IMG/VR virus record: IMGVR_UViG_3300023174_000121
Coordinates: 1 to 64,000 of that record
Reading direction: 5' to 3' (one strand)
Source of the DNA: a virus
DNA length: 64,000 bases
In this document: one piece after another, positions 4,543 through 49,290 of the stretch
Layout: each line of letters starts with the position of its first letter
How positions within the stretch are numbered: position 1 is the stretch's first letter
Notes under the pieces: generated by a model
What the model was told of the DNA's origin: nothing
The model's database searches: none
Seen by the model: only the letters and a program-made list of their open reading frames with translations
Translations under genes and position numbers: made by a program

Positions 4543-7500
4543 TTAGATTGAAATTTTATATGCGTTTACGCCACTAAACGAATTCGTCGGGAATCTATCA
4601 ATAAACATCAATGTTGTATTTGCTACTGATGAGACTTTGAAGTATTCGTTGTTTGCTAAGAACACACTACCAGAACTAAAATCGCTCACAAAGTTAGTTC
4701 CAGAGCCAATTACTCCAGATTGTGAGTCACTAAACATTACGCTTGCGAGATTTGCAATTGGTGTGCTTGCAAACGAACTGATCGGAAAGTCGCCATAAGT
4801 TATATTTGCTGAAGATACTGTTCCAGCAATTTTAATATATTTATTTATTTCACTTTCAACTAAAATTTCAGTTAAAGGTTGTGTGCTAGGATCTAAGAAT
4901 GTATAACTTGAATAATCAGAAATCAATTGATCAGCTATATATCCAACTGTAACATCTTTGTATTTTGCAGTTCCATACACACCAATCGATTGTTTCGGAA
5001 CAATAATAGAAGTCGAACTAGTAGAATTAGACTGAAGATTATTATTGCTTTGATAAGAAACAGTTAAATTGCTTCTACTATACGATGATTGATTATCAGC
5101 ATTAGAAGATAGAATCTTAGTATATTGGACGCTATTGTATGAAGAACTATTATCAAATGATGACGATAGTTTGATTATCAAACTCGTTTGATTTGATGTA
5201 GAAATATCTAAAGGAGCATTTGTTGAAACAACAGTCATTGCACTCTGTTGCGCTACCAATGATGTATTAACAACATTAGGTAGTGTCTTTATATACTGAC
5301 TACTAATATAAGAGAATTGTGTAGCAACATTAGACTGAGGGACATATACAGTTAGTTTGGAATCAGTTGATGTTGTACCTTCAACAAGCAATGATCCAGT
5401 AGTGCTGAAAGACTTATTGATAATAGAAGATACTTGATTTGCAGAAACGCTAATCAATCTAGAGCCAGTCAATACTCCATAGTTGGAAGATGTTGCAAAA
5501 TCATTTCTTGAATATACATCAGAGAATCTTGTTCCTGAGAATTCAGATATTGTATTGCTTGAATAGAATGATATTGGTCTATCACCAATGTATACTTCAC
5601 CGTATGCTCCAGTAGTATGCTCAATGATAACTTTAGTGATTTCACGAATATACGCTTCTGGATCTGGTTGTAAAGTAGTTACTCCAATACTTGTCGTAAT
5701 AACAGATAGCTGTGTTTGATTTGTTATTGTTGTAGAAGTATTACTAGGAAGAATTCTAACATATTTTGTGTTTGTACTAGCGATTAAATCTTTAGGTGGT
5801 GTTTGAATTATAATCTTATATGATGTTGGCTTTGCAGCATCAGTTACACCAACCGAAAGAGCATAAAGAATTTGAGCAACGACTTTATTAATTCCAGCAC
5901 TACCATTTTCACCAACACCATTAGCGCCGCCAGATAGAATGAATGCTTCGACGTTAATATTATTGAGAATTTGAATCTCACCAAATGGCTGCAATCCTGC
6001 TGGGTGAATAATCTTCTTTAGAGTAGACGAATATTCAGCAAATGTTAATCCGCTCTTTATGACATAAGAATAATCTTGATAGTAATAAGAATCTTGAATG
6101 ATTTTGTAATCAATCTTTCCATCATCATTTAACCAGACACCATCTTTGATACCTAGACCAGAAATGATTGGAATTAGATTTGCATTACCGTCACCAACAG
6201 AAGAGACAGATGCATTTGCACTTGTGTAGTTTACACCAAAATTTGTCACTTCGACAGCACGAATAGAACCGATACCAGTTCTATTGTTTGCAGAGTCTAC
6301 CGAAACATTTGCGCTTGTGCCTTGAATTCCAGTAACGACTAGATTTGCACTTGAACCAGTTGTCGTAGAAATTGAAATCGACGGCAAATTCGCAGACGTA
6401 TATCCAGATCCAAAATTTGTTAGTTCTAATCTCTTAATTGGTCCCTTAACTTTCCAGTCTTCATTTTTAATAATATCGTAATAGCTTCCATCAGCTTTCA
6501 TCTGAGAGCCGTCTTCAAATAGAAGATCGAATGTCGTGCTTTCAACAACAGAAGCAATAATACCAGCAGCACTTGTGCCAGAGCCACCAGTAAATATTAG
6601 AGTATTACCAACGCCGTAATTTGTACCTGCATTTGAAATTGTAATTAATTTGTCTGTTAAAAGACCAGCAGAAGAAACTACAGAATCTTGTAACGTGATT
6701 GTAGGCTTTTTATAATACCCAGATCCGCGATTGATAATTGAGACTCTTGAGATTTCACCAAGAGTATATGTGTTTGCTCCAATCGTAGCTGTGTATGTAT
6801 TAGCTAATCCTGTGACGCGAACAATTAATCCAGTTCCACCAGAATCGGTGTTATTAATCGAAGCTGTAGTGTTTAATCTATAGCCATGTCCAATTGTGTT
6901 TACTCTTAACGCACTAATTGGAGATTGTTGAATCGAAGAAACTTTTGCTACAGCAGCATATCCGTCACCAGTAATTGTTACTGGACTATTTACTTGATAT
7001 CCTGAACCACCGTCAACAATTGTAAACCCAGAAACAATTCCATAAAGTGTTGCAAACAGATTATCATCATCTGTTGCTACAATTCTTTCACCAGCATTAA
7101 ATGTTCCGCTAACCAACTTGAGAGTCATTTCAGCGACTTCAATTGATCCTACGAAAAACTTTTTAATGTCTACAACGTTTGCAAGTGAACCAGAAGTTTG
7201 ACCAACAACTGTTTTATTAATGAATAAGAAAATATCTCTATTGTATGCAACGTTCGATAAGTCATATCCAAACGCTGTTGGCGTTGTTCGTATAACTTCT
7301 GTCTTTTCAAAGTTACCAGCAGAAACACGAAGAATGTCTGTACCTGGATAATAAAATTCAATCTCTTGATCATATAAAAGTCTAAACAAGAATCTATAAG
7401 ATTGTTCAGTACCTTTAGATTGAAAGAAATCTTTAAATTGTTTTGCGATTAATCGCTTGTTACCATAATACGAAGCAGGTAAACTTGGATACAATTCATC

Positions 7501-7911
7501 TTTCAAATAAGAAATATACTTATCGATTGATGTATCAATTTGTTTATAGTTTAAAACATTACCGGACGCTCTTACTACGTTATCTTTAATTCCGTATACG
7601 AAAGATGTTGCGTTAGATGTTTGACCAGTAATTGTTTCGTATTGGTCAAAGACTTTTCTTTCGCTTGTAACTCTTACAATTAAAGTTGTCGATGTTACTT
7701 GAATTACTTTTCCAGTAGCGCCACTTTCGCTACCAAGAATAGTTTCACCAACTTGAAATGTTCCAACTGTAGTGTTTAATGTGATTGTTGTAGTTTGCAA
7801 CCACTCATAATATGCTTCTAAAAAGAGTTGGAATCTTTCCGCATCAATAGAACTATTTTCGTTTACAAGCGTGTTAACGCTTAACGAAGGTTTAAAAAAT
7901 ACATCGTTCAT
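4543..7911 (-). CDS. gp7: Baseplate wedge initiator gp7-like
   Basis: FLEAYYEWL, FFQSKGTEQSYRFLFRLLY and IQDSYYYQDYSYVIKS...IHPAG motifs; lies between gp6 and gp8. Confidence 0.8.
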   Translation of the reverse strand: MNDVFFKPSLSVNTLVNENSSIDAERFQLFLEAYYEWLQTTTITLNTTVGTFQVGETILGSESGATGKVIQVTSTTLIVRVTSERKVFDQYETITGQTSNATSFVYGIKDNVVRASGNVLNYKQIDTSIDKYISYLKDELYPSLPASYYGNKRLIAKQFKDFFQSKGTEQSYRFLFRLLYDQEIEFYYPGTDILRVSAGNFEKTEVIRTTPTAFGYDLSNVAYNRDIFLFINKTVVGQTSGSLANVVDIKKFFVGSIEVAEMTLKLVSGTFNAGERIVATDDDNLFATLYGIVSGFTIVDGGSGYQVNSPVTITGDGYAAVAKVSSIQQSPISALRVNTIGHGYRLNTTASINNTDSGGTGLIVRVTGLANTYTATIGANTYTLGEISRVSIINRGSGYYKKPTITLQDSVVSSAGLLTDKLITISNAGTNYGVGNTLIFTGGSGTSAAGIIASVVESTTFDLLFEDGSQMKADGSYYDIIKNEDWKVKGPIKRLELTNFGSGYTSANLPSISISTTTGSSANLVVTGIQGTSANVSVDSANNRTGIGSIRAVEVTNFGVNYTSANASVSSVGDGNANLIPIISGLGIKDGVWLNDDGKIDYKIIQDSYYYQDYSYVIKSGLTFAEYSSTLKKIIHPAGLQPFGEIQILNNINVEAFILSGGANGVGENGSAGINKVVAQILYALSVGVTDAAKPTSYKIIIQTPPKDLIASTNTKYVRILPSNTSTTITNQTQLSVITTSIGVTTLQPDPEAYIREITKVIIEHTTGAYGEVYIGDRPISFYSSNTISEFSGTRFSDVYSRNDFATSSNYGVLTGSRLISVSANQVSSIINKSFSTTGSLLVEGTTSTDSKLTVYVPQSNVATQFSYISSQYIKTLPNVVNTSLVAQQSAMTVVSTNAPLDISTSNQTSLIIKLSSSFDNSSSYNSVQYTKILSSNADNQSSYSRSNLTVSYQSNNNLQSNSTSSTSIIVPKQSIGVYGTAKYKDVTVGYIADQLISDYSSYTFLDPSTQPLTEILVESEINKYIKIAGTVSSANITYGDFPISSFASTPIANLASVMFSDSQSGVIGSGTNFVSDFSSGSVFLANNEYFKVSSVANTTLMFIDRFPTNSFSGVNAYKISI

Positions 7912-33290: not shown

Positions 33291-33635
33291 AAGTGGTAGG
33301 TTATTCTGTTACGAGGAAACCTACCGAAACCCTAAGTGGTTATCACGCCACTAATCTGTATTCGCTATCGTTTGCGTTTACTTGATTTGCTTCTACGGCC
33401 GAGTTGCCTCAACTCTACGGCTTTCGCATTGCCGTGTTGTCTGCATCGATACTCTTTGCTCTGTCGAACCTAATTCGGGCCCATCATAAACATAATGTTT
33501 GGAACTTTTATTATGAGCATTATTATCTCATTCACCAGTAGACAATATGTTTATGGTGGACCCGGGGGAGAACTGCCCTCCCCGTCCAAAACTCATTTTT
33601 CTTTGCTTCTTTCCTTTCAGAGTTTACAACAATAC
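33291..33635 (-). ncRNA. ssrA: Circularly permuted (two-piece) tmRNA, tag ANDSEYRLVA*
   Basis: Acceptor piece ends ...GGGGAG-GGCAGTT-CTCCCC-CGGGTCC-ACCA (3' end 33554). Coding piece starts GGGCCCG at 33482 (G3.U70 Ala identity). Tag ORF 33375-33343. Ends with the GTAGGTTTCCTCGTAACAGAATAACCTAC structure. Confidence 0.9.
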
Positions 33636-33638
33636 TTT

Positions 33639-33672
33639 TATTTAGTATATCATTATTTTACAAATGGTGCAA
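33639..33672 (-). promoter_or_regulatory. Overlapping early (TTGCAC-17-TATACT) and late-like (CTAAATA) promoters for the tmRNA
   Basis: Both motifs are visible immediately upstream of the acceptor piece. Confidence 0.55.
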
Positions 33673-34009
33673 GGTTGGGTGATTTCCATCCCTCTGGCTT
33701 TAGCACTTTGCCATCTTCACGCTTTCGAACCTTTCCTGTGTCTTTATCTATCTTGTCAAAATTGCTTCTTGCGACTTCACCCCATGCACCATTAACATCA
33801 TAGCCTTTCATGTAGCAATAGCCAAGAATAACCCAAATCATATCCATACATGCATCAAGTTTTTCTACTTCATCATCTTTATTGTTTGCTTGAATGAATT
33901 CATTAAACTCTTCAACAATTAGATTTCGATATAGACTTGCATTTGCTTTAGTCTTTTCTTGATCACACGCATCAATAAAAATTCGAACATCATCATACAT
34001 TCTATTCAT
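33653..34009 (-). CDS. MazG-like NTP pyrophosphohydrolase
   Basis: LIVEEFNEF...LDACMD...EVARSNFDK...REDGKVLKPEGW; RBS before ATG 34009. Confidence 0.85.
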   Translation of the reverse strand: MNRMYDDVRIFIDACDQEKTKANASLYRNLIVEEFNEFIQANNKDDEVEKLDACMDMIWVILGYCYMKGYDVNGAWGEVARSNFDKIDKDTGKVRKREDGKVLKPEGWKSPNLAPFVK

Positions 34010-43903: not shown

Positions 43904-44176
43904 TTAATCATCATCGCCAATTGCATAAGTCACATCATATCCACCTTTACGATCTGTCCAACAATCGTCGTATGTCCATTCCCATCCAAGATCGAAGCCA
44001 TTGTCTTCTGCGTAATCAATAACATCGATAGGATCAAGTGTTCCATCTTCAAATGCTTTCAAATGCAATTCCATTTCATCTTCATCATCCGAATAAACGT
44101 CACGAATCAAATCTTCTGTAATTTCGATTTCATATTGTTTTTCGACTTGATGCCATTCTGATTTAATCACTTTCAT
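43904..44176 (-). CDS. Hypothetical acidic protein
   Basis: KSEWHQVEK...WTDRKGGYDVTY. Confidence 0.7.
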   Translation of the reverse strand: MKVIKSEWHQVEKQYEIEITEDLIRDVYSDDEDEMELHLKAFEDGTLDPIDVIDYAEDNGFDLGWEWTYDDCWTDRKGGYDVTYAIGDDD

Positions 44177-44188
44177 AATGAACTCCTT

Positions 44189-44665
44189 TTAAGCTAATTT
44201 CAAACTTTTCAATCTATCAGCAGCGTAAGAAGCAGCAAATGCTTTGGGCTTTATCATCGGAATCACATTGCATGTTCCTTTTATAAATCCAATCGCTTCA
44301 TTTATAACGCAAAAACTTCCATGCAAATCACTTGGATTAATATCCAAATGCACTTCTACATATCTATCTTCCAACACATCAGCAAGTTTTAAATATAACT
44401 CAGAAACTTTATAAACTTCATTCATTAAACGATATCTAGGTTTAGAAACTTTCTGATCGAAATCTCGTTCTCTTTGCACTTCACCAAATAGTTTGCATCC
44501 ATGCTTACCATCTAGATGAATCACAATAGCAAGAATGTAATCCGCGTGCCATACTCCATTTACGTTAACTCTTTCAGAATCACAACCAACATAGATTTTT
44601 GTTTCTTCAGATTGATTTAAAATAAATTCTTTGACTTCTTCTATATTGAGTTTATGATGATACAT
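44189..44665 (-). CDS. RNase H-like YkuK (DUF458) family protein
   Basis: KIYVGCDS, RLMNEV, EVHLDIN, KPKAFAASYAAD. Confidence 0.85.
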   Translation of the reverse strand: MYHHKLNIEEVKEFILNQSEETKIYVGCDSERVNVNGVWHADYILAIVIHLDGKHGCKLFGEVQRERDFDQKVSKPRYRLMNEVYKVSELYLKLADVLEDRYVEVHLDINPSDLHGSFCVINEAIGFIKGTCNVIPMIKPKAFAASYAADRLKSLKLA

Positions 44666-44679
44666 TTTTCTTTTTAAAT

Positions 44680-44754
44680 TGGTGGGCCCACTAGGAATTG
44701 AACCTAGACTCAATCGATTATGAGTCGAACGCTTTACCATTAAGCTATAGGCCC
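44680..44754 (-). tRNA. tRNA-Ile2/Met (CAT)
   Basis: GGGCCTA...CTCATAA...GGGCCCACCA; acceptor resembles Ile2; own TTGACA-17-TATAGT promoter at 44767-44795. Confidence 0.9.
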
Positions 44755-44803
44755 GTGAAATTTATTACTATAACACTAAATTTATTTAATGTCAATGTAA
44801 TTT

Positions 44804-44886
44804 TGGTGGGGCTGGAGAGACTCGAACTCTCAAGCCGAAGCGTCTGGGCTTAAACCAGATGTGTTTGCCAATTTCACCACAGCCCC
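44804..44886 (-). tRNA. tRNA-Leu (TAA)
   Basis: GGGGCTG...TCTGG-TTTAAGC-CCAGA, long variable arm, CCA end. Confidence 0.92.
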
Positions 44887-45510
44887 ATGTAATAATTCGT
44901 TAGCCCTACTATAATTAGCTCCTTTTGGCGTCAATCCAAGTTTTAACAATGCTTGTCTAATATTTTTAGTTGTATTTAATGCTTGCAAAAAATCATCATC
45001 AGAAACATATTGATCTTTTCTTTTATGTATGTTTTTCCCTTTCCAAGTTTCGGTAAATGAATGACAGTTAGGACATAATAGTTTCAAATTCTCCTTAACA
45101 TTATTTTGATTATTCCCGTCTATATGTTCCAATTCTAATGTTATAGGTTTATCCAGCCATTTAGATAAACCACAATTTTCACAATTATGCCCACGTTCAT
45201 TAATCAAAAATCCTTTATGATTTCCCAATTTACCATATTCGAATTTTGTATTTAAAAATTTATTTTTACTCCAAGCCATTCTTTTTTTAGTCTCTTCTGG
45301 TAGATTTTTATATCTCTCTGATCCAGAAATTCTTAAACCATTTTCATATACTTTTTTTGTCGATTCTCTATTTTTAGATTTTATGGCTGGACAAGATTGT
45401 GATCTTTGTAAACACATTAAATTTCCCGAACCATTTTTATATGTGGCTACATTCCCACATCCATACGAGCATAAATCAGTAGTAATTATTGGATTTGCTA
45501 TAAGTTTCAT
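44830..45510 (-). CDS. HNH homing endonuclease whose ORF reads into tRNA-Leu
   Basis: CENCG...LELEHIDGNNQNNVKENLKLLCPNCHS; N-terminal CSYGCG; CAGGAG RBS; stop codon lies inside the tRNA. Confidence 0.9.
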   Translation of the reverse strand: MKLIANPIITTDLCSYGCGNVATYKNGSGNLMCLQRSQSCPAIKSKNRESTKKVYENGLRISGSERYKNLPEETKKRMAWSKNKFLNTKFEYGKLGNHKGFLINERGHNCENCGLSKWLDKPITLELEHIDGNNQNNVKENLKLLCPNCHSFTETWKGKNIHKRKDQYVSDDDFLQALNTTKNIRQALLKLGLTPKGANYSRANELLHGAVVKLANTSGLSPDASA

Positions 45511-45527
45511 AAAGCGACTCCTGTTAA

Positions 45528-45568
45528 AACGGTATACTTTATTTATAAAAAAACAAATGTATACCGTT
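45528..45568 (-). promoter_or_regulatory. Late promoter TATAAATA inside a 10-bp inverted repeat
   Basis: AACGGTATAC...TATAAATA...GTATACCGTT. Confidence 0.75.
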
Positions 45569-45581
45569 CCACCACTCTCGC
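45558..45581 (-). pseudogene. 5' remnant of a tRNA-Leu-like gene
   Basis: GCGAGAGTGGTGGAACGGTATACA is an acceptor 5' strand plus D arm, then abruptly truncated. Confidence 0.6.
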
Positions 45582-45590
45582 ATTTTTGTA

Positions 45591-46085
45591 TCATATCACA
45601 ATGTTTCCGTCGTTGTCAACTTCAATCCAAGTAGAGTCGCCCATGTAGCGAACTCTGCTTATGTATTCGTAATGTTCTGGTGCACCACAAGCCCAATCAC
45701 TTGGACCATTGATGGTTAATCCAATGACGTTTGTTTGTTTGTTTAAGAATAGCCAATAGCATTGACCATGAAAGACTTGAAAGCTGTATTCAGCAGAATG
45801 TACTGCATCAGTAATATACAATCGACGTTTGATTTGTTCTGCTTGCTTTTGAAGCACGTTGACCATTTCCATGATTCGATCATATTCTTGTTGGGCATGC
45901 ATTCTCGCAACATTAAGCATTAAATCTTTCTGCTGCTTTACTGGAACTAACTCAAACTTTGGTGCACCTGCTTCTGTTGGATACTCTGTGATATTTCTAT
46001 TCAAGAAGGTGACAAGACTATCTCCAATTTTACTATCAAAACTAGTTCTACCTTTGGATATATTAGACTTGTCACCCATTATCAC
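45591..46085 (-). CDS. DUF2452-like protein
   Basis: YPTEAGAPKFELVPV...AQQEYDRI...W. Confidence 0.7.
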   Translation of the reverse strand: MIMGDKSNISKGRTSFDSKIGDSLVTFLNRNITEYPTEAGAPKFELVPVKQQKDLMLNVARMHAQQEYDRIMEMVNVLQKQAEQIKRRLYITDAVHSAEYSFQVFHGQCYWLFLNKQTNVIGLTINGPSDWACGAPEHYEYISRVRYMGDSTWIEVDNDGNIVI

Positions 46086-46219
46086 TCTTGTTCTAGGGGA
46101 ACGTATTCGTCTTTATGACAACCGCAACTAGGGCAAAGATAAAACATTGGCAAGTCTTCAAACTTACCATCAACTTCTTCATCATGAATATGGTTACACA
46201 CTTGACATTCGTATTTCAT
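46082..46219 (-). CDS. Rubredoxin
   Basis: MKYECQVCNHIHDEEVDGKFEDLPMFYLCPSCGCHKDEY (two CxxC); AGGAG RBS; not in the ORF track. Confidence 0.85.
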   Translation of the reverse strand: MKYECQVCNHIHDEEVDGKFEDLPMFYLCPSCGCHKDEYVPLEQE

Positions 46220-46243
46220 AAAAAAACTCCTAAAAAAATAAAG

Positions 46244-46319
46244 TGGCGCGGCTGGAGAGATTCGAACTCCCGACAGACCGGGTAGAAGCCGGTTACTCTA
46301 TCCACTGAGTTACAGCCGC
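46244..46319 (-). tRNA. tRNA-Arg (TCT)
   Basis: Cloverleaf with ACCGG-CTTCTAC-CCGGT and CCA. Confidence 0.92.
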
Positions 46320-46341
46320 ATTGTGAAAACATTATATAACA

Positions 46342-46992
46342 CTAATTCCTGGAAATCAAGTCATCCACGAACTCTATCAATAACTGATGATGTTTGTAGT
46401 CATGCCATTTGGATTCTAAATATTGCCAAGGCTCTTCGTACCAATATTTCATACTTTCTGGATGACAACCAATTAAGCCAACTCGCCGTTGTATGATTGC
46501 CATCGGATCTCCATTTGCATACCTAGCAATAACATCAAATTTTGATTCGTCGCCTATGATAGCACATCCATCATAGAAAAACATATCTTGTTCAGAACCT
46601 TTCCAATTCACTTTTGCTATAGTAGCATATGATCGCTTTATCTCAGCATTGTCTCGTTTGATATATTGCACAACATCCATATCATTCACTATGTCAAAAT
46701 ATCTTGGAGCTGCCCAATACGCACCCATGCATATGCCTAGATAACGTCCACCCCAGAATACATAATCTGCAACTTTGTTTGCAACTTTTCTTTTGAAAAG
46801 ATGATGATAAGAATTACTGTCGCCAATTCCACCAGGGAATATTACGCAATAGAATTGATTTAGATTTAATTCGCCAGCTAATTCGTTTATGTCAAATACT
46901 TGAACTTCATACTTTGAAGATAGTATTGCTGAGATTGCGACACAGCAATCTTGAGAACACTCTGGATGATTAATGAATAGTCCGACTTTCAT
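46342..46992 (-). CDS. BPL_N / class I glutamine-amidotransferase-like protein
   Basis: FPGGIGD, GGRYLGICMGAYWA, GCHPE. Confidence 0.8.
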   Translation of the reverse strand: MKVGLFINHPECSQDCCVAISAILSSKYEVQVFDINELAGELNLNQFYCVIFPGGIGDSNSYHHLFKRKVANKVADYVFWGGRYLGICMGAYWAAPRYFDIVNDMDVVQYIKRDNAEIKRSYATIAKVNWKGSEQDMFFYDGCAIIGDESKFDVIARYANGDPMAIIQRRVGLIGCHPESMKYWYEEPWQYLESKWHDYKHHQLLIEFVDDLISRN

Positions 46993-47065
46993 GGAGCGGG
47001 ATATCGGAATCGAACCGATGACCGAAGATTGGAAATCTGCTGTTTTGCCATTAAACTAATCCCGC
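46992..47065 (-). tRNA. tRNA-Gly (TCC)
   Basis: GCGGGAT...TTTCCAA...ATCCCGCTCCA. Confidence 0.92.
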
Positions 47066-47072
47066 ATTCACT

Positions 47073-47468
47073 TTATGCAATAAGTCTTTTCTGCTTCACT
47101 TTCTCTGCTGTTTCTTTTAATACAACTTTTAAATTTTCAACGTTTTTTAAAATCTCTGCTGCATCTTCCCGGACATTTGGATTGAATGCTTTAAAATTAT
47201 CTCCATGACCAATCAATAGATGACAATCATTGTCCATGCATAGGGTGATTAGATTGCTTTCTTCCAATTCTAATTCTGGATGCAAATGAAATGGCTGAAC
47301 GTGATGTACATTTAAATGCTCTTTAGAACCACACGCTGCACAAGACGGATGCTTTTTAATAAATTTATGTTGAACAGTAGGCCAATGTGGACTTCTTTCT
47401 TGCGTGATTCCTTTGTCTTTATTGTCTAATTTCTTTTGACTCTTTTTTCTCCGCGCGGTTGTTGTCAT
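47073..47468 (-). CDS. HNH endonuclease
   Basis: CAACG...LNVHHVQPF...NLITLC...CHLLIGH. Confidence 0.85.
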   Translation of the reverse strand: MTTTARRKKSQKKLDNKDKGITQERSPHWPTVQHKFIKKHPSCAACGSKEHLNVHHVQPFHLHPELELEESNLITLCMDNDCHLLIGHGDNFKAFNPNVREDAAEILKNVENLKVVLKETAEKVKQKRLIA

Positions 47469-47492
47469 TTTTATTATCCTTTTTTAATTGTA

Positions 47493-47563
47493 TGCCCCTT
47501 GACAGAATCGAACTGCCAATTGATGATTACAAATCAACTGTTATACCATTTAACTAAAAGGGC
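47493..47563 (-). tRNA. tRNA-Thr (TGT), CCA not encoded
   Basis: GCCCTTT...TTTGTAA...AGGGGCA. Confidence 0.85.
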
Positions 47564-47583
47564 TTCGAAAACACACACATTGT

Positions 47584-47658
47584 TGGCTCCCCGACCTGGG
47601 ATCGAACCAGGGACCGACGGATTAACAGTCCGGCGCTCTACCGCTGAGCTATCAGGGA
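47584..47658 (-). tRNA. tRNA-Asn (GTT)
   Basis: Cloverleaf with CTGTTAA loop and CCA. Confidence 0.93.
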
Positions 47659-47691
47659 ATGTATAGTATATAGCATTAAAAAAGAACAATT

Positions 47692-47779
47692 TGGCGGATA
47701 GTATAGGATTCGAACCTATGCGCCGATTTCTCAGCGACAGTTTAGCAAACTGCTCCTTTAACCACTCAGGCAACTATCC
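47692..47779 (-). tRNA. tRNA-Ser (GCT)
   Basis: Long variable arm, TTGCTAA loop, GCCA. Confidence 0.93.
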
Positions 47780-47784
47780 TCGTC

Positions 47785-47874
47785 TGGCGGAAGCGGTGAG
47801 ATTCGAACTCACGGAGCCTTTGCAGACTCTTCAGTTTTCAAGACTGACGGATTAAACCACTCTCCCACGCTTCC
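47785..47874 (-). tRNA. tRNA-Ser (TGA)
   Basis: Long variable arm, CTTGAAA loop, GCCA. Confidence 0.93.
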
Positions 47875-47880
47875 TGAAAT

Positions 47881-47957
47881 TGGTTGGTCTACCCGGATTC
47901 GAACCGGGAACTCTCAGATTAAAAGTCTGATAATCTGACCAATTGAGTTATAGACCA
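47881..47957 (-). tRNA. tRNA-Lys (TTT)
   Basis: CTTTTAA loop, ACCA. Confidence 0.9.
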
Positions 47958-47962
47958 GTTGT

Positions 47963-48039
47963 TGGTGCCTCCACCTGGATTTGAACCAGGGACTTCCACC
48001 TTATCAAGATGGCACTCTGACCAACTGAGTTATAGAGGC
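47963..48039 (-). tRNA. tRNA-Ile (GAT)
   Basis: TTGATAA loop, ACCA. Confidence 0.9.
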
Positions 48040-48042
48040 AAT

Positions 48043-48117
48043 TGGCGGTCCCAGCGAGAATCGAACTCGCCTCTACGGCGTGACAAGCCGTTATACTAAC
48101 CGATATACTATGGAACC
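48043..48117 (-). tRNA. tRNA-Asp (GTC)
   Basis: TTGTCAC loop, GCCA. Confidence 0.92.
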
Positions 48118-48122
48118 AATTA

Positions 48123-48197
48123 TGGTGGATCGTGACAGGATCGAACTGCCGACATTCGCCGTGTAAAGGCGCTACTCTACCTCTGAGTTAACGATCC
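48123..48197 (-). tRNA. tRNA-Val (TAC)
   Basis: TTTACAC loop, ACCA. Confidence 0.92.
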
Positions 48198-48203
48198 AAA
48201 ATT

Positions 48204-48286
48204 TGGTGGAGGATGGGAGGATGGGAGGATCGAACTCCCACTAAAGGCTTGCAAAGCCCCTGTGCTCCCATTATCACTAATCCCCC
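48204..48286 (-). tRNA. tRNA-Ala (TGC) with an 8-nt 3' duplication
   Basis: GGGGGAT/ATCCTCC acceptor with G3.U70; TTTGCAA loop; extra CATCCTCC copy before ACCA. Confidence 0.75.
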
Positions 48287-48303
48287 AATACTGTTAAAGA
48301 ACA

Positions 48304-48380
<77 letters not shown>

Positions 48381-48391
48381 AAATTTGTCAA

Positions 48392-48465
48392 TGGCTCCGG
48401 TGGAGAGAATCGAACTCCCACTAGTGGTTTTGGAGACCACCGCACTGCCATTATACTACACCGGA
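48392..48465 (-). tRNA. tRNA-Trp (CCA)
   Basis: CTCCAAA loop, GCCA. Confidence 0.92.
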
Positions 48466-48470
48466 ACAAA

Positions 48471-48539
48471 CCATATGGAAACACACTCCTCTCTTTGTTG
48501 TCGCCGCCTAGGTTCGGCTCAGAATGTGTTTCCATATGG
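48471..48539. repeat. Long inverted repeat 3' of tRNA-Tyr
   Basis: CCATATGGAAACACA...TGTGTTTCCATATGG (15-bp perfect arms). Confidence 0.85.
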
Positions 48540-48623
48540 TGGGTAGCCAGGGAATCGAACCCCGTTGCCGCTAAGGACCACAGATTTACAGTCTGCTGCA
48601 TTCACCAATGATGCTCGCTACCC
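48537..48623 (-). tRNA. tRNA-Tyr (GTA)
   Basis: GGGTAGC/GCTACCC, CTGTAAA loop, long variable arm, ACCA. Confidence 0.9.
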
Positions 48624-48658
48624 ATATTGAAACACACTAATTCTAATGTGCTTGAATA

Positions 48659-48710
48659 TGGTGTCACTCTCCTGACCACTTTTAACGGAGGGGGTAGAGC
48701 CTTGAGTGAC
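48659..48710 (-). ncRNA. Candidate CCA-ended mini-RNA with a 7-bp acceptor-like stem
   Basis: GTCACTC-(34 nt)-GAGTGAC-A-CCA inside the tRNA operon. Confidence 0.4.
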
Positions 48711-48749
48711 TTGTCTTAGACAGGCTTTATTCCTGGTTACTAACCATTT

Positions 48750-48827
48750 TGGTGCCCAAGGTCGGATTCGAACCGACACGACCTTGCTTCTAAGGCAAGT
48801 ACCTCATACCAATTGGGTTACTTGGGC
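48750..48827 (-). tRNA. tRNA-Leu (TAG), short variable loop
   Basis: GCCCAAG...CTTGC-CTTAGAA-GCAAG-GTCGT...ACCA. Confidence 0.88.
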
Positions 48828-48844
48828 TTGTTTATATAGTCTTT

Positions 48845-49024
48845 TTATCTAAATTGATTTTTAATATACTGATTTACCCGATTCGAATCTTCTGCATACA
48901 TTTCTAATGGAGTCTTCATATCAAATGCTTTGTTTTTAGAAACCCACCACTTTTCAACCAATGATTCTTTTCCAAGTAAAGCCATCAACATTCTATCGTA
49001 CTTTGCTTTCATTTCAGAATTCAT
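48845..49024 (-). CDS. Small protein resembling the Xre/MbcA/ParS antitoxin C-terminal domain
   Basis: LMALLGKESLVEKWWVSKNKAFDMKTPLEM...VNQYI; not in the ORF track. Confidence 0.5.
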   Translation of the reverse strand: MNSEMKAKYDRMLMALLGKESLVEKWWVSKNKAFDMKTPLEMYAEDSNRVNQYIKNQFR

Positions 49025-49290
49025 TTACTATACTCCGACATAAACTTCTCTAAGGGAATTTCACGAATTTCCGTTGAGTTAGCCCATCGATCAAAATTAG
49101 CAGCTGGTTCTGATACATCAACTACCCATGTACTTCCTGGACCATTACCGCGAAGTCGAAAGTAACGACCATTTCTACTAAAACAACCACAATTATATTT
49201 TATAACATTACGCCAATTATCTCGATATGTTAATCCAAATCCATTTCTTTTGAACCAAGTTTTTATATCACTTTTCGACATTTTGCTCAC
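49021..49290 (-). CDS. Hypothetical protein
   Basis: Coupled ORF. Confidence 0.6.
   Translation of the reverse strand: MSKMSKSDIKTWFKRNGFGLTYRDNWRNVIKYNCGCFSRNGRYFRLRGNGPGSTWVVDVSEPAANFDRWANSTEIREIPLEKFMSEYSK

Follow-up and report, generated by a model that had tools for sequence, protein, structure and literature searches.

Homing endonucleases are thought to enter essential genes either through self-splicing introns or inteins, or by settling beside a gene with a resistant allele of their own. Integrase-borne islands and prophages insert in tRNA genes and restore the 3' end that they displace. The free-standing endonuclease F-CphI reportedly lies beside a psbA group I intron of cyanophages that has no open reading frame (ORF), an arrangement described as collaborative homing. 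Here we describe an HNH endonuclease gene that, together with a complete tRNA-Leu(UAA) gene, stands in the place of most of a resident tRNA-Leu(UAA) gene in a freshwater lake phage. The locus lies at positions 44,804 to 45,581 of the window, by which we mean the whole stretch analysed, 64,000 nucleotides (nt) forming the first 64 kb of the 85.9-kb IMG/VR record IMGVR_UViG_3300023174_000121 (CheckV completeness, 52%).

SegB of phage T4, a GIY-YIG enzyme, is likewise encoded by a free-standing gene in the tRNA cluster of T4-like phages, as excerpts of its description state (PMC2330249). It cuts tRNA genes of phages that lack it and drives the inheritance of its own gene together with neighbouring tRNA genes (PMC2330249 and PMC13096335, both in excerpt), and the amplification of a tRNA gene driven by SegB has been published as an anti-defence measure (PMC13096335). 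The same excerpts give segB a late promoter, a hairpin and a stop codon that abuts the downstream tRNA-Arg gene, and add that maturation of this tRNA would cut between the last codon of segB and its stop codon (PMC2330249).

Control by a hairpin and a late promoter is established for T4 endonuclease genes, segB included, in the relevant part of a further source (PMC2988022). That part places the late promoter of I-TevI within a hairpin that sequesters the ribosome-binding site (RBS), with an operator that mimics the homing site. It also covers intron-less homing by SegF, SegG and MobE of T4, each of which cuts a nearby conserved gene, with repair copying both the endonuclease gene and a resistant donor allele (PMC2988022).

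The window locus is, as we read it, probably an HNH homing-endonuclease cassette of the free-standing kind, one that enters a phage tRNA gene by "cut and rescue", destroying the gene while bringing a working substitute.

A cassette in place of a resident tRNA-Leu gene

Relatives of the locus were gathered through the two flanking proteins, and their tRNA genes and sequence were then read. The HNH gene is absent from four close relatives: L002 (DUF2452 protein 98% identical), L004, L005 and L006 (93%). All four carry an intact tRNA-Leu(UAA) gene 12 nt past the DUF2452 stop codon, with a tRNA-Met gene 6 nt further on. This resident gene is 84 nt long and starts GCGAGAGTGGTGGAA(C/T)GGTATACAC. In the window, 803 nt stand in place of 66 nt, namely tRNA-Leu nt 25-84 and the 6-nt spacer ahead of tRNA-Met. 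What is left of the resident gene is a 24-nt 5' stump, which is 100% identical to nt 1-24 of the intact tRNA-Leu in L002 and L082. Allowing up to 3 mismatches, the stump sequence occurs only once in the 85.9-kb record, and a search of the record for resident tRNA-Leu nt 15-84 at up to 5 substitutions found no trace of it.

A further relative, L003 (DUF2452 protein 93% identical), holds the identical insertion. The left junction, between nt 24 and 25 of the resident gene, is the same in four contigs (the window, L003, L009 and L244), which among the loci compared stand against nine with an intact resident-type gene. The cassette is thus polymorphic for presence and absence, the empty sites being those of L002, L004, L005 and L006 and, in a second genomic context, that of L008.

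The preliminary description had proposed that an HNH element broke a tRNA-Leu gene and supplied its own replacement, and had looked to relatives lacking the HNH gene for the decision. These relatives have the intact GCGAGAG-type tRNA-Leu(UAA) at the exact site, and the GGGGCTG-type tRNA-Leu carried by the cassette was found in none of the four. Together with the second context and the conservation of the cassette, the empty sites support the proposal.

The carried tRNA-Leu departs from the resident type in the D-loop and the anticodon stem. It is the only tRNA-Leu with a UAA anticodon among the 17 tRNAs of the window, and it is 100% identical between cassettes (83 nt in L003 and L009, and the 74 available nt in L244). 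An ORF borne by a group I intron was considered and rejected, as Rfam finds no intron match in 44000-49200, the downstream tRNA is complete by itself and the resident 3' part is gone. A split or trans-spliced tRNA was rejected likewise, Rfam giving no intron match and the 3' half of the resident tRNA being missing from the record.

The minus strand holds most window genes, the series of 17 tRNA genes included. The four elements earlier reported there agree base for base with our reading: the 24-nt tRNA-Leu 5' fragment; the TATAAATA motif inside a perfect 10-bp inverted repeat, one arm of which is the D-loop end of the stump; the AGGAG RBS and HNH ORF downstream of the repeat; and a complete, divergent tRNA-Leu, called by both ARAGORN and Rfam, with the ORF stop codon 57 nt inside it. 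In transcript order, the features of the locus are as follows.

46085-45591, minus strand: end of the DUF2452 gene, the upstream neighbour
45619-45590, minus strand: sigma-70-like site TTGACA-18-TATGAT, TG-extended, score 11/12, predicted resident promoter
45581-45558, minus strand: tRNA-Leu(UAA) 5' stump, nt 1-24, GCGAGAGTGGTGGAACGGTATACA (GCGAGAG...GGTATACA), assigned by identity to intact relatives
45568-45528, minus strand: inverted repeat or hairpin, 5' arm in the stump and 3' arm in the cassette
45568-45559, minus strand: 5' arm AACGGTATAC, the D-loop end of the stump
45557-44755, minus strand: mobile cassette, 803 nt, made up of leader, HNH ORF, tRNA-Leu(UAA) and promoter-bearing spacer, delimited by comparison with empty relatives
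45547-45540, minus strand: TATAAATA motif in the loop of the A/T-rich leader
45537-45528, minus strand: 3' arm GTATACCGTT, cassette sequence
45522-45518, minus strand: Shine-Dalgarno sequence AGGAG, 7 nt ahead of the ATG, read directly
45510-44830, minus strand: HNH ORF, 226 amino acids (aa), ATG at 45510 and stop codon at 44832-44830, assigned by PHROG match and alignment
44886-44804, minus strand: carried tRNA-Leu(UAA), 83 nt, ARAGORN tRNA-Leu(taa), Rfam 58.3 bits
44795-44767, minus strand: sigma-70-like site TTGACA-17-TATAGT, TG-extended, score 11/12, within the 49-nt 3' spacer
44754-44680, minus strand: tRNA-Met(CAU), right flank and putative homology arm, outside the cassette, ARAGORN and Rfam
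44665-44189, minus strand: RNase H-like gene, the downstream neighbour

Movement between genomes and contexts

In L009, the tRNA-Leu site that holds the cassette follows a tRNA-Gly(ACC) gene rather than the DUF2452 gene, and L008 provides the collinear empty counterpart; L244, a metagenome contig, belongs to the L009 lineage. The HNH part of the cassette is 99.7% identical to that of the window in L003, 94.4% in L009 and 97.1% in L244. In L003 the upstream flank shows 92% identity, and in L009 and L244 it cannot be aligned, so the cassette is closer between genomes than its flanks are, a pattern that points to horizontal spread.

The stump follows the recipient. It is of the GCGAGAG type in the window and L003, and of the GCGGTAG type in L009 and L244, as in the empty L008. 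At nt 16, L003 has a T, as do the HNH-less L004 and L005, and the window has a C, as do L002 and L006. These recipient-type markers place the left crossover within 8-17 nt of the junction. The tRNA-Met to the right of the cassette is also of the recipient type in each lineage. On these grounds, tRNA is the sole sequence that the filled genomes have in common outside the cassette, with tRNA-Leu nt 1-24 on the left and tRNA-Met on the right. These sequence comparisons indicate that the cassette moves between diverged phages and between genomic contexts.

Both alleles were also found in lake metagenomes. The window stretch is present in runs from 11 freshwater metagenome studies, and the contigs of four runs were mapped on 44000-46200. 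Contigs spanning the cassette occur in X13 (record 6, 1424 nt) and X9 (record 27, 863 nt, 44725-45587, 0 differences), and in each of these runs another contig lacks the 803 nt and has 44754 directly joined to 45558. A 725-nt contig of X15 extends past 45558 into eleven letters that match, as reverse complement, resident tRNA nt 25-35. Contig depth in X15, a poor measure, is about 43 for the intact-allele contig and 3-10 for the cassette contigs.

Two side observations concern the flanks. Two distinct tRNA-Met(CAU) genes alternate at the site, independently of the cassette (window 44680-44754 versus L002:4595-4671): the window and L006 have one, and L002, L003, L004 and L005 the other. In L244, about 700 nt between tRNA-Gly(ACC) and the stump (L244:1237-1935) are without a counterpart in L009 or L008 and may be another insertion.

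The HNH enzyme

The ORF matches PHROG 14736, annotated "HNH endonuclease", at 4.8e-33. It has an HNH (His-Me finger) core, with the H-N-H residues and CxxC...CxxC zinc ligands, and C110, C113, H129, N141, C146, C149 and H150 are invariant in all 33 aligned homologues. The AlphaFold model, with a mean predicted local distance difference test score (pLDDT) of 81.6, comprises an N-terminal Cys-rich module, the HNH core (strands 126-129 and 142-145, then helix 147-150), a disordered linker and a three-helix module at the C terminus. tRNA sequence makes up the final 19 codons of the ORF, and the tail residues 211-226 have pLDDT below 50. A profile search of PDB sequences gave no match.

A longer ORF of 254 aa, starting at the ATG at 45594, was dropped in favour of the 226-aa form because homologues begin at MK(L/R)I. 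Among the HNH copies of the cassettes, the ratio of nonsynonymous to synonymous substitution rates (dN/dS) is 0.03-0.065, and every difference falls within codons 1-207. This low ratio, together with the identity of the 83-nt tRNA across copies, therefore argues that the enzyme and the carried tRNA are both under purifying selection.

Leader and promoters

A repeat search also recovers the inverted repeat as 13-nt arms at 92% complementarity. For RNA corresponding to 45600-45495 the predicted folding energy is -29.7 kcal/mol (z = -4.5), a stability reached by 0 of 200 shuffled sequences. In this long-leader fold both arms pair and the AUG is partly paired. A short leader starting at 45536 is predicted to be unstructured (-3.2 kcal/mol, z = 0.39). 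The repeat is kept in L003, with one G.U wobble, and in L009 and L244, with a 1-nt insertion in the loop. Genomic copies of TATAAATA lie on the main coding strand in 6 of 7 cases, and 4 sit 29-78 nt ahead of ORFs.

The folding predictions suggest that the repeat may be accounted for by an RNA hairpin that hides the RBS in read-through transcripts, no less well than by autoregulation through an operator. An operator that mimics the homing site, as in I-TevI, may also be at work.

The sigma-70-like site at 45619-45590 stands with the same sequence ahead of the intact tRNA-Leu in HNH-less relatives. It is predicted to have driven the original tRNA-Leu gene and now to read into the stump, the hairpin and the HNH gene. 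The second site, at 44795-44767, would drive tRNA-Met and downstream genes; both of its hexamers are retained in L003 and it appears in L009 as TTGACA-17-TAGAAT, with a variable intervening spacer. Sigma-70-like sites are not enriched in 44500-46300 (6 versus 6.9 expected), and only the two sites scoring 11/12 were used, as leads.

As a separate observation, the window encodes a permuted transfer-messenger RNA (tmRNA) of the alphaproteobacterial type at 33295-33676 on the minus strand (Rfam tmRNA_permuted 81.9 bits, alpha_tmRNA 51.2 bits), which is not among the ARAGORN calls.

The wider HNH family in tRNA clusters

Homologues of the HNH protein number 1059 at E <= 1e-3. Scans with the single protein returned two loci in viral contigs and one in metagenome contigs, and the wider family was collected with an alignment query. 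It comprises 82 viral loci, 68 of them scorable; the other 14, in which the ORF was truncated, frame-shifted or implausibly called, were left out. A tRNA lies within 1 kb in 67 of the 68 scorable loci. In 35/68 loci the end of the ORF falls inside a same-strand tRNA or no more than 15 nt from one, and this tRNA is tRNA-Leu in 22 of the 35. By C-terminal tail classes drawn with regular expressions of our own making, 37 of 120 listed homologues end in a peptide resembling the translated 5' part of a long-arm tRNA; homologues with such tails include P0002, P0004 and P0014, at 65-69% identity.

The combination of stump, HNH gene and complete tRNA recurs elsewhere. The stumps end at nt 19-26 in L177, L200, L179, L231 and L203/L221; that of L175 ends near nt 35. 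Three cassettes of unrelated sequence (those of the window type, of L179 and of L200) draw the 5' arm of the repeat from the D-loop end of the stump. A perfect inverted repeat of at least 8 bp occurs in 21 of the 68 family leaders compared with 21 of 340 shuffled sequences, and ATAAATA lies within 45 nt of the ATG in 22/68. Ten family leaders were folded; five have z <= -2.6, and that of L200 has z = -1.9.

Some family members are associated with introns. A group I intron without an ORF interrupts the anticodon loop of tRNA-Leu(UAA) in six loci (Rfam RF00028, 50-66 bits, by the gathering score), at the following positions.

L165:954-1148, RF00028 intron
L166:1512-1710, RF00028 intron
L171:2108-2311, RF00028 intron
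L172:2108-2311, RF00028 intron
L174:2106-2292, RF00028 intron
L238:1024-1201, RF00028 intron

The HNH ORF reads into the intron-bearing tRNA in the first five, and in L238 that tRNA lies just upstream of the HNH gene. In L183, L185 and L209, the HNH gene lies between tRNA-Leu(UAA) halves split at the anticodon; Rfam made no intron call there, and the HNH gene is probably inside an intron. Judged from these arrangements, the family appears to span free-standing, intron-adjacent and, probably, intron-borne states.

Cassettes at other tRNA genes extend the pattern. At L007:5401-6204, in the same phage group as the window, a tRNA-Thr cassette has the reversed order: resident nt 1-23, a new and complete tRNA-Thr (5432-5507), a related HNH ORF (to 6149) and resident nt 57-75. 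Its empty counterpart is L008:2822-2896. At L009:6976-7695, the resident tRNA-Met is broken after nt 34 and is followed by a 181-aa endonuclease of another kind (7044-7589, PHROG 15137), a new, divergent and complete tRNA-Met (7580-7654) and a 3' stump (7671-7695); a 3' stump is thus left in both the tRNA-Thr and the tRNA-Met cassette. As a side observation, at the tRNA-Thr site of L009 the HNH gene and the adjoining 5' part of a tRNA-Trp have since been deleted.

A second HNH gene in the window (131 aa, 47073-47468, minus strand) was examined and set aside as unrelated: it is a plain insertion between tRNA-Thr and tRNA-Gly with neither stump nor replacement, and so not of the same design. It is absent in L002 and present in L004 and L005. 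Beside it, the 3' end of the window tRNA-Thr reads CATACAA for CACACCA, and the encoded CCA is lost. Further along, at 48204-48286 (minus strand), ARAGORN calls a tRNA-Ala of 72 nt, compared with 75 in L002; its Rfam score is low (47.8 bits), and its end is overlapped by 19 nt that match the 3' end of tRNA-Ala in L002. Either a small indel or a wrong call may account for the difference.

A cut-and-rescue model and its alternatives

In the model that we favour, co-infection would allow the enzyme to cut or nick the resident tRNA-Leu gene between the D-arm and the anticodon arm, at about nt 20-35. The break would be repaired from the cassette-bearing genome, with short tRNA segments serving as homology arms. 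The carried tRNA-Leu would escape cutting because its D-loop and anticodon stem differ; it would keep UUA decoding, so that invasion would be without cost to the phage. Transcripts begun at the resident promoter would hold both arms of the repeat, and the stable hairpin would bury the RBS region. Those starting at TATAAATA would be without the 5' arm and available for late translation. The position of the stop codon within the tRNA would mean that any one transcript gives rise to either a mature tRNA or a complete HNH message, never both, which would limit the enzyme further.

Several points weigh against this model. Where the enzyme would cut, and that the carried tRNA would be immune, we infer from sequence. 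The Pfam HNH score of the enzyme is 18.7 bits, under the curated cut-off of 21.4, and Foldseek gives weak matches to HNH nucleases (McrA, TagI and Cap5), the best at E = 0.078. On the side of expression, the Shine-Dalgarno sequence is itself unpaired in the predicted fold, helices lying on either side of the 4-nt internal loop that holds it; the window has no excess of TATAAATA (5 copies versus 5.3 expected); and 4 of the 10 folded family leaders have no significant hairpin. Contigs of the X17 metatranscriptome cover 45010-45506 and 44648-44811 and prove neither transcription nor transcript ends, and we draw no conclusion from the gap in RNA-library contigs at 45507-45895.

The number of copies is also small. 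The target motif was found in at least 115 viral stretches, and 80 of these were examined: 76 fall within a tRNA-Leu called by ARAGORN (71 UAA, 3 UAG and 2 CAA), and 4 have no tRNA call, of which one lies at the end of a contig and three have an interruption further downstream. The nt 24|25 junction of the cassette occurs in none of these 80, so the element is rare, and its targets are common. With L244 in the L009 lineage, the four known copies represent only two clearly independent contexts, and a single ancient event followed by flank shuffling could give identical junctions.

Cultured phages add a further point of this kind. A megablast search of the locus against them gave no match, and the distant mode gave only the HNH core and tRNAs; a related HNH core is present in the tRNA region of a T5-like phage. 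The closest annotated relative among cultured phages is the "TflIV-like" HNH of Escherichia phage vB_EcoM_ACG-C40, one of the T5 F-TflIV-type HNH endonucleases of phage tRNA regions, which is of the HNH family found here (46% identity across residues 90-220, same PHROGs) and lies in the tRNA cluster of a T4-like coliphage, on the tRNA strand. It too is polymorphic for presence and absence, 64 of 526 matching GenBank records covering at least 80% of the query. In T4-like coliphages (L360, NC_019399.1 67694-71059), the HNH gene lies 6 nt upstream of an unchanged T4-type tRNA-Leu and replaces a tRNA-Gln without a substitute; T4, T2 and RB51 have tRNA-Gln at that place. No tRNA-like stretch was seen when 1330-1480 of the coliphage locus was read by eye, no fragment scan being made. 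From this arrangement it follows that targeting or replacement of tRNA-Leu is not universal in the family.

The alternative that fares best is that the cassette is a passenger, brought in by ordinary recombination through conserved tRNA segments, with an HNH enzyme that cuts elsewhere, is not specific for tRNA-Leu or no longer acts as a drive. We regard this as unlikely. The phage tRNA clusters here are highly mosaic, the tRNA-Met variants assort apart from the cassette and other indels lie nearby, yet identical junctions with recipient markers 8 nt away fit repair started by a break better than random crossovers. The rarity of the cassette, with 4 filled contigs against many intact targets, would suit a passenger; the strong purifying selection on its enzyme would not. 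Finally, although the coliphage homologue leaves tRNA-Leu in place, stump ends elsewhere in the HNH family recur at nt 19-26 of different tRNAs.

Still less likely, in our judgement, is a selected tRNA swap. Here the divergent tRNA-Leu(UAA) would be beneficial cargo, escaping a host tRNA nuclease or decoding better, and the HNH gene would deliver or amplify it, as SegB does for tRNA-Tyr. The invariance of the carried tRNA while the HNH gene drifted by 3-6% is as this view would have it, as are the published role of SegB in anti-defence and the heavy investment of the phage in translation, with 17 tRNAs and its own tmRNA. Nothing, however, points to a host nuclease directed at tRNA-Leu, and in at least one sample, X15, coverage does not favour the filled allele, for what contig depth is worth. 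A beneficial cargo is moreover compatible with cut and rescue and not a true alternative to it.

An assembly artefact or chimera joining two phage variants within tRNA-Leu is exceedingly improbable: tRNA genes are repeats at which metagenome assemblers can mis-join, but the identical junction appears in independent contigs of different samples (the window, L003, L009 and L244) and again in the X9 and X13 contigs, which are Logan contigs of other runs.

Returning to cut and rescue, the model would add a third route to those by which homing endonucleases enter essential genes, one open to an RNA gene: the target is destroyed and a working, non-homologous substitute is brought along. It would be a natural analogue of engineered "cleave-and-rescue" gene drives. 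With short tRNA segments as its only homology arms, the cassette could move between otherwise unrelated phage genomes. Such movement could explain the mosaic tRNA clusters of phages, the tRNA fragments found in them and the build-up of HNH genes there. The cassettes may also offer natural pairs of enzyme and target, in which the stump ends mark the likely cleavage region, as leads for new sequence-specific nucleases.

A bolder extension, which we put forward tentatively and with considerable doubt, is that the HNH family specialises in intron-free invasion of tRNA genes, each member destroying its target and bringing a divergent substitute with the same anticodon. The stump would be co-opted as the 5' arm of a translational switch, half of the regulator thus coming from the target site, tRNA maturation and enzyme synthesis would exclude each other, truncated messages would pass to the phage tmRNA, and the family would be a main engine of turnover of the tRNA repertoire in large phages.

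Comparison with known systems

The cassette resembles SegB in its putative late promoter and predicted hairpin, and in the close contact between the stop codon and a downstream tRNA. The earlier suggestion that RNase P processing would leave a non-stop HNH message thus has a published parallel in segB and tRNA-Arg (PMC2330249). It differs in that SegB is a GIY-YIG rather than an HNH enzyme, recognises the T-psi-C motif of many tRNAs and, in the excerpts cited above, lies between intact tRNA genes with no stump. In the window, by contrast, the target is destroyed, a non-homologous substitute with the same anticodon travels along, and the ORF runs 57 nt into that substitute.

For SegF, SegG and MobE, the donor allele is described, in the part of the source cited, as a homologous variant that gives clean gene conversion (PMC2988022). 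The tRNA of the cassette is too divergent to recombine with the target, so that a stump of the old gene stays behind and the unit can enter unrelated contexts.

As for I-TevI, the TATAAATA motif lies in the loop of a predicted hairpin just 5' of the RBS, and the repeat is partly target-site sequence. The window hairpin is unlike that of I-TevI in that half of it comes from the stump of the invaded gene and the Shine-Dalgarno sequence is flanked by helices rather than paired.

The family members that most recall F-CphI are those of L165, L166, L171, L172 and L174, in which the HNH gene lies directly upstream of an intron-bearing tRNA-Leu(UAA) (the order is reversed in L238), with the putative donor protection physically linked to the nuclease gene. 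In the window, protection would come from the substitute gene and not from an intron that splits the target, and splicing would be unneeded.

Integrase-borne islands, like the cassette, occupy a tRNA gene and keep its function with tRNA sequence that they bring. They rely on site-specific recombinases and duplicate only an identical 3' part, whereas the cassette supplies a different tRNA in its entirety, the old gene persisting as a dead 5' stump.

A full-text literature search, with supplementary files outside its reach, did not turn up any account of a replacement tRNA borne by an endonuclease cassette. Free-standing homing endonucleases in phage tRNA clusters, the cutting of tRNA genes by SegB and intron-less homing with a resistant allele are known already. 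The present locus differs in a destroyed RNA gene that leaves a stump, a non-homologous substitute with the same anticodon, an ORF that overlaps this substitute, the use of the stump in a predicted hairpin and putative homology arms made of short tRNA segments only.

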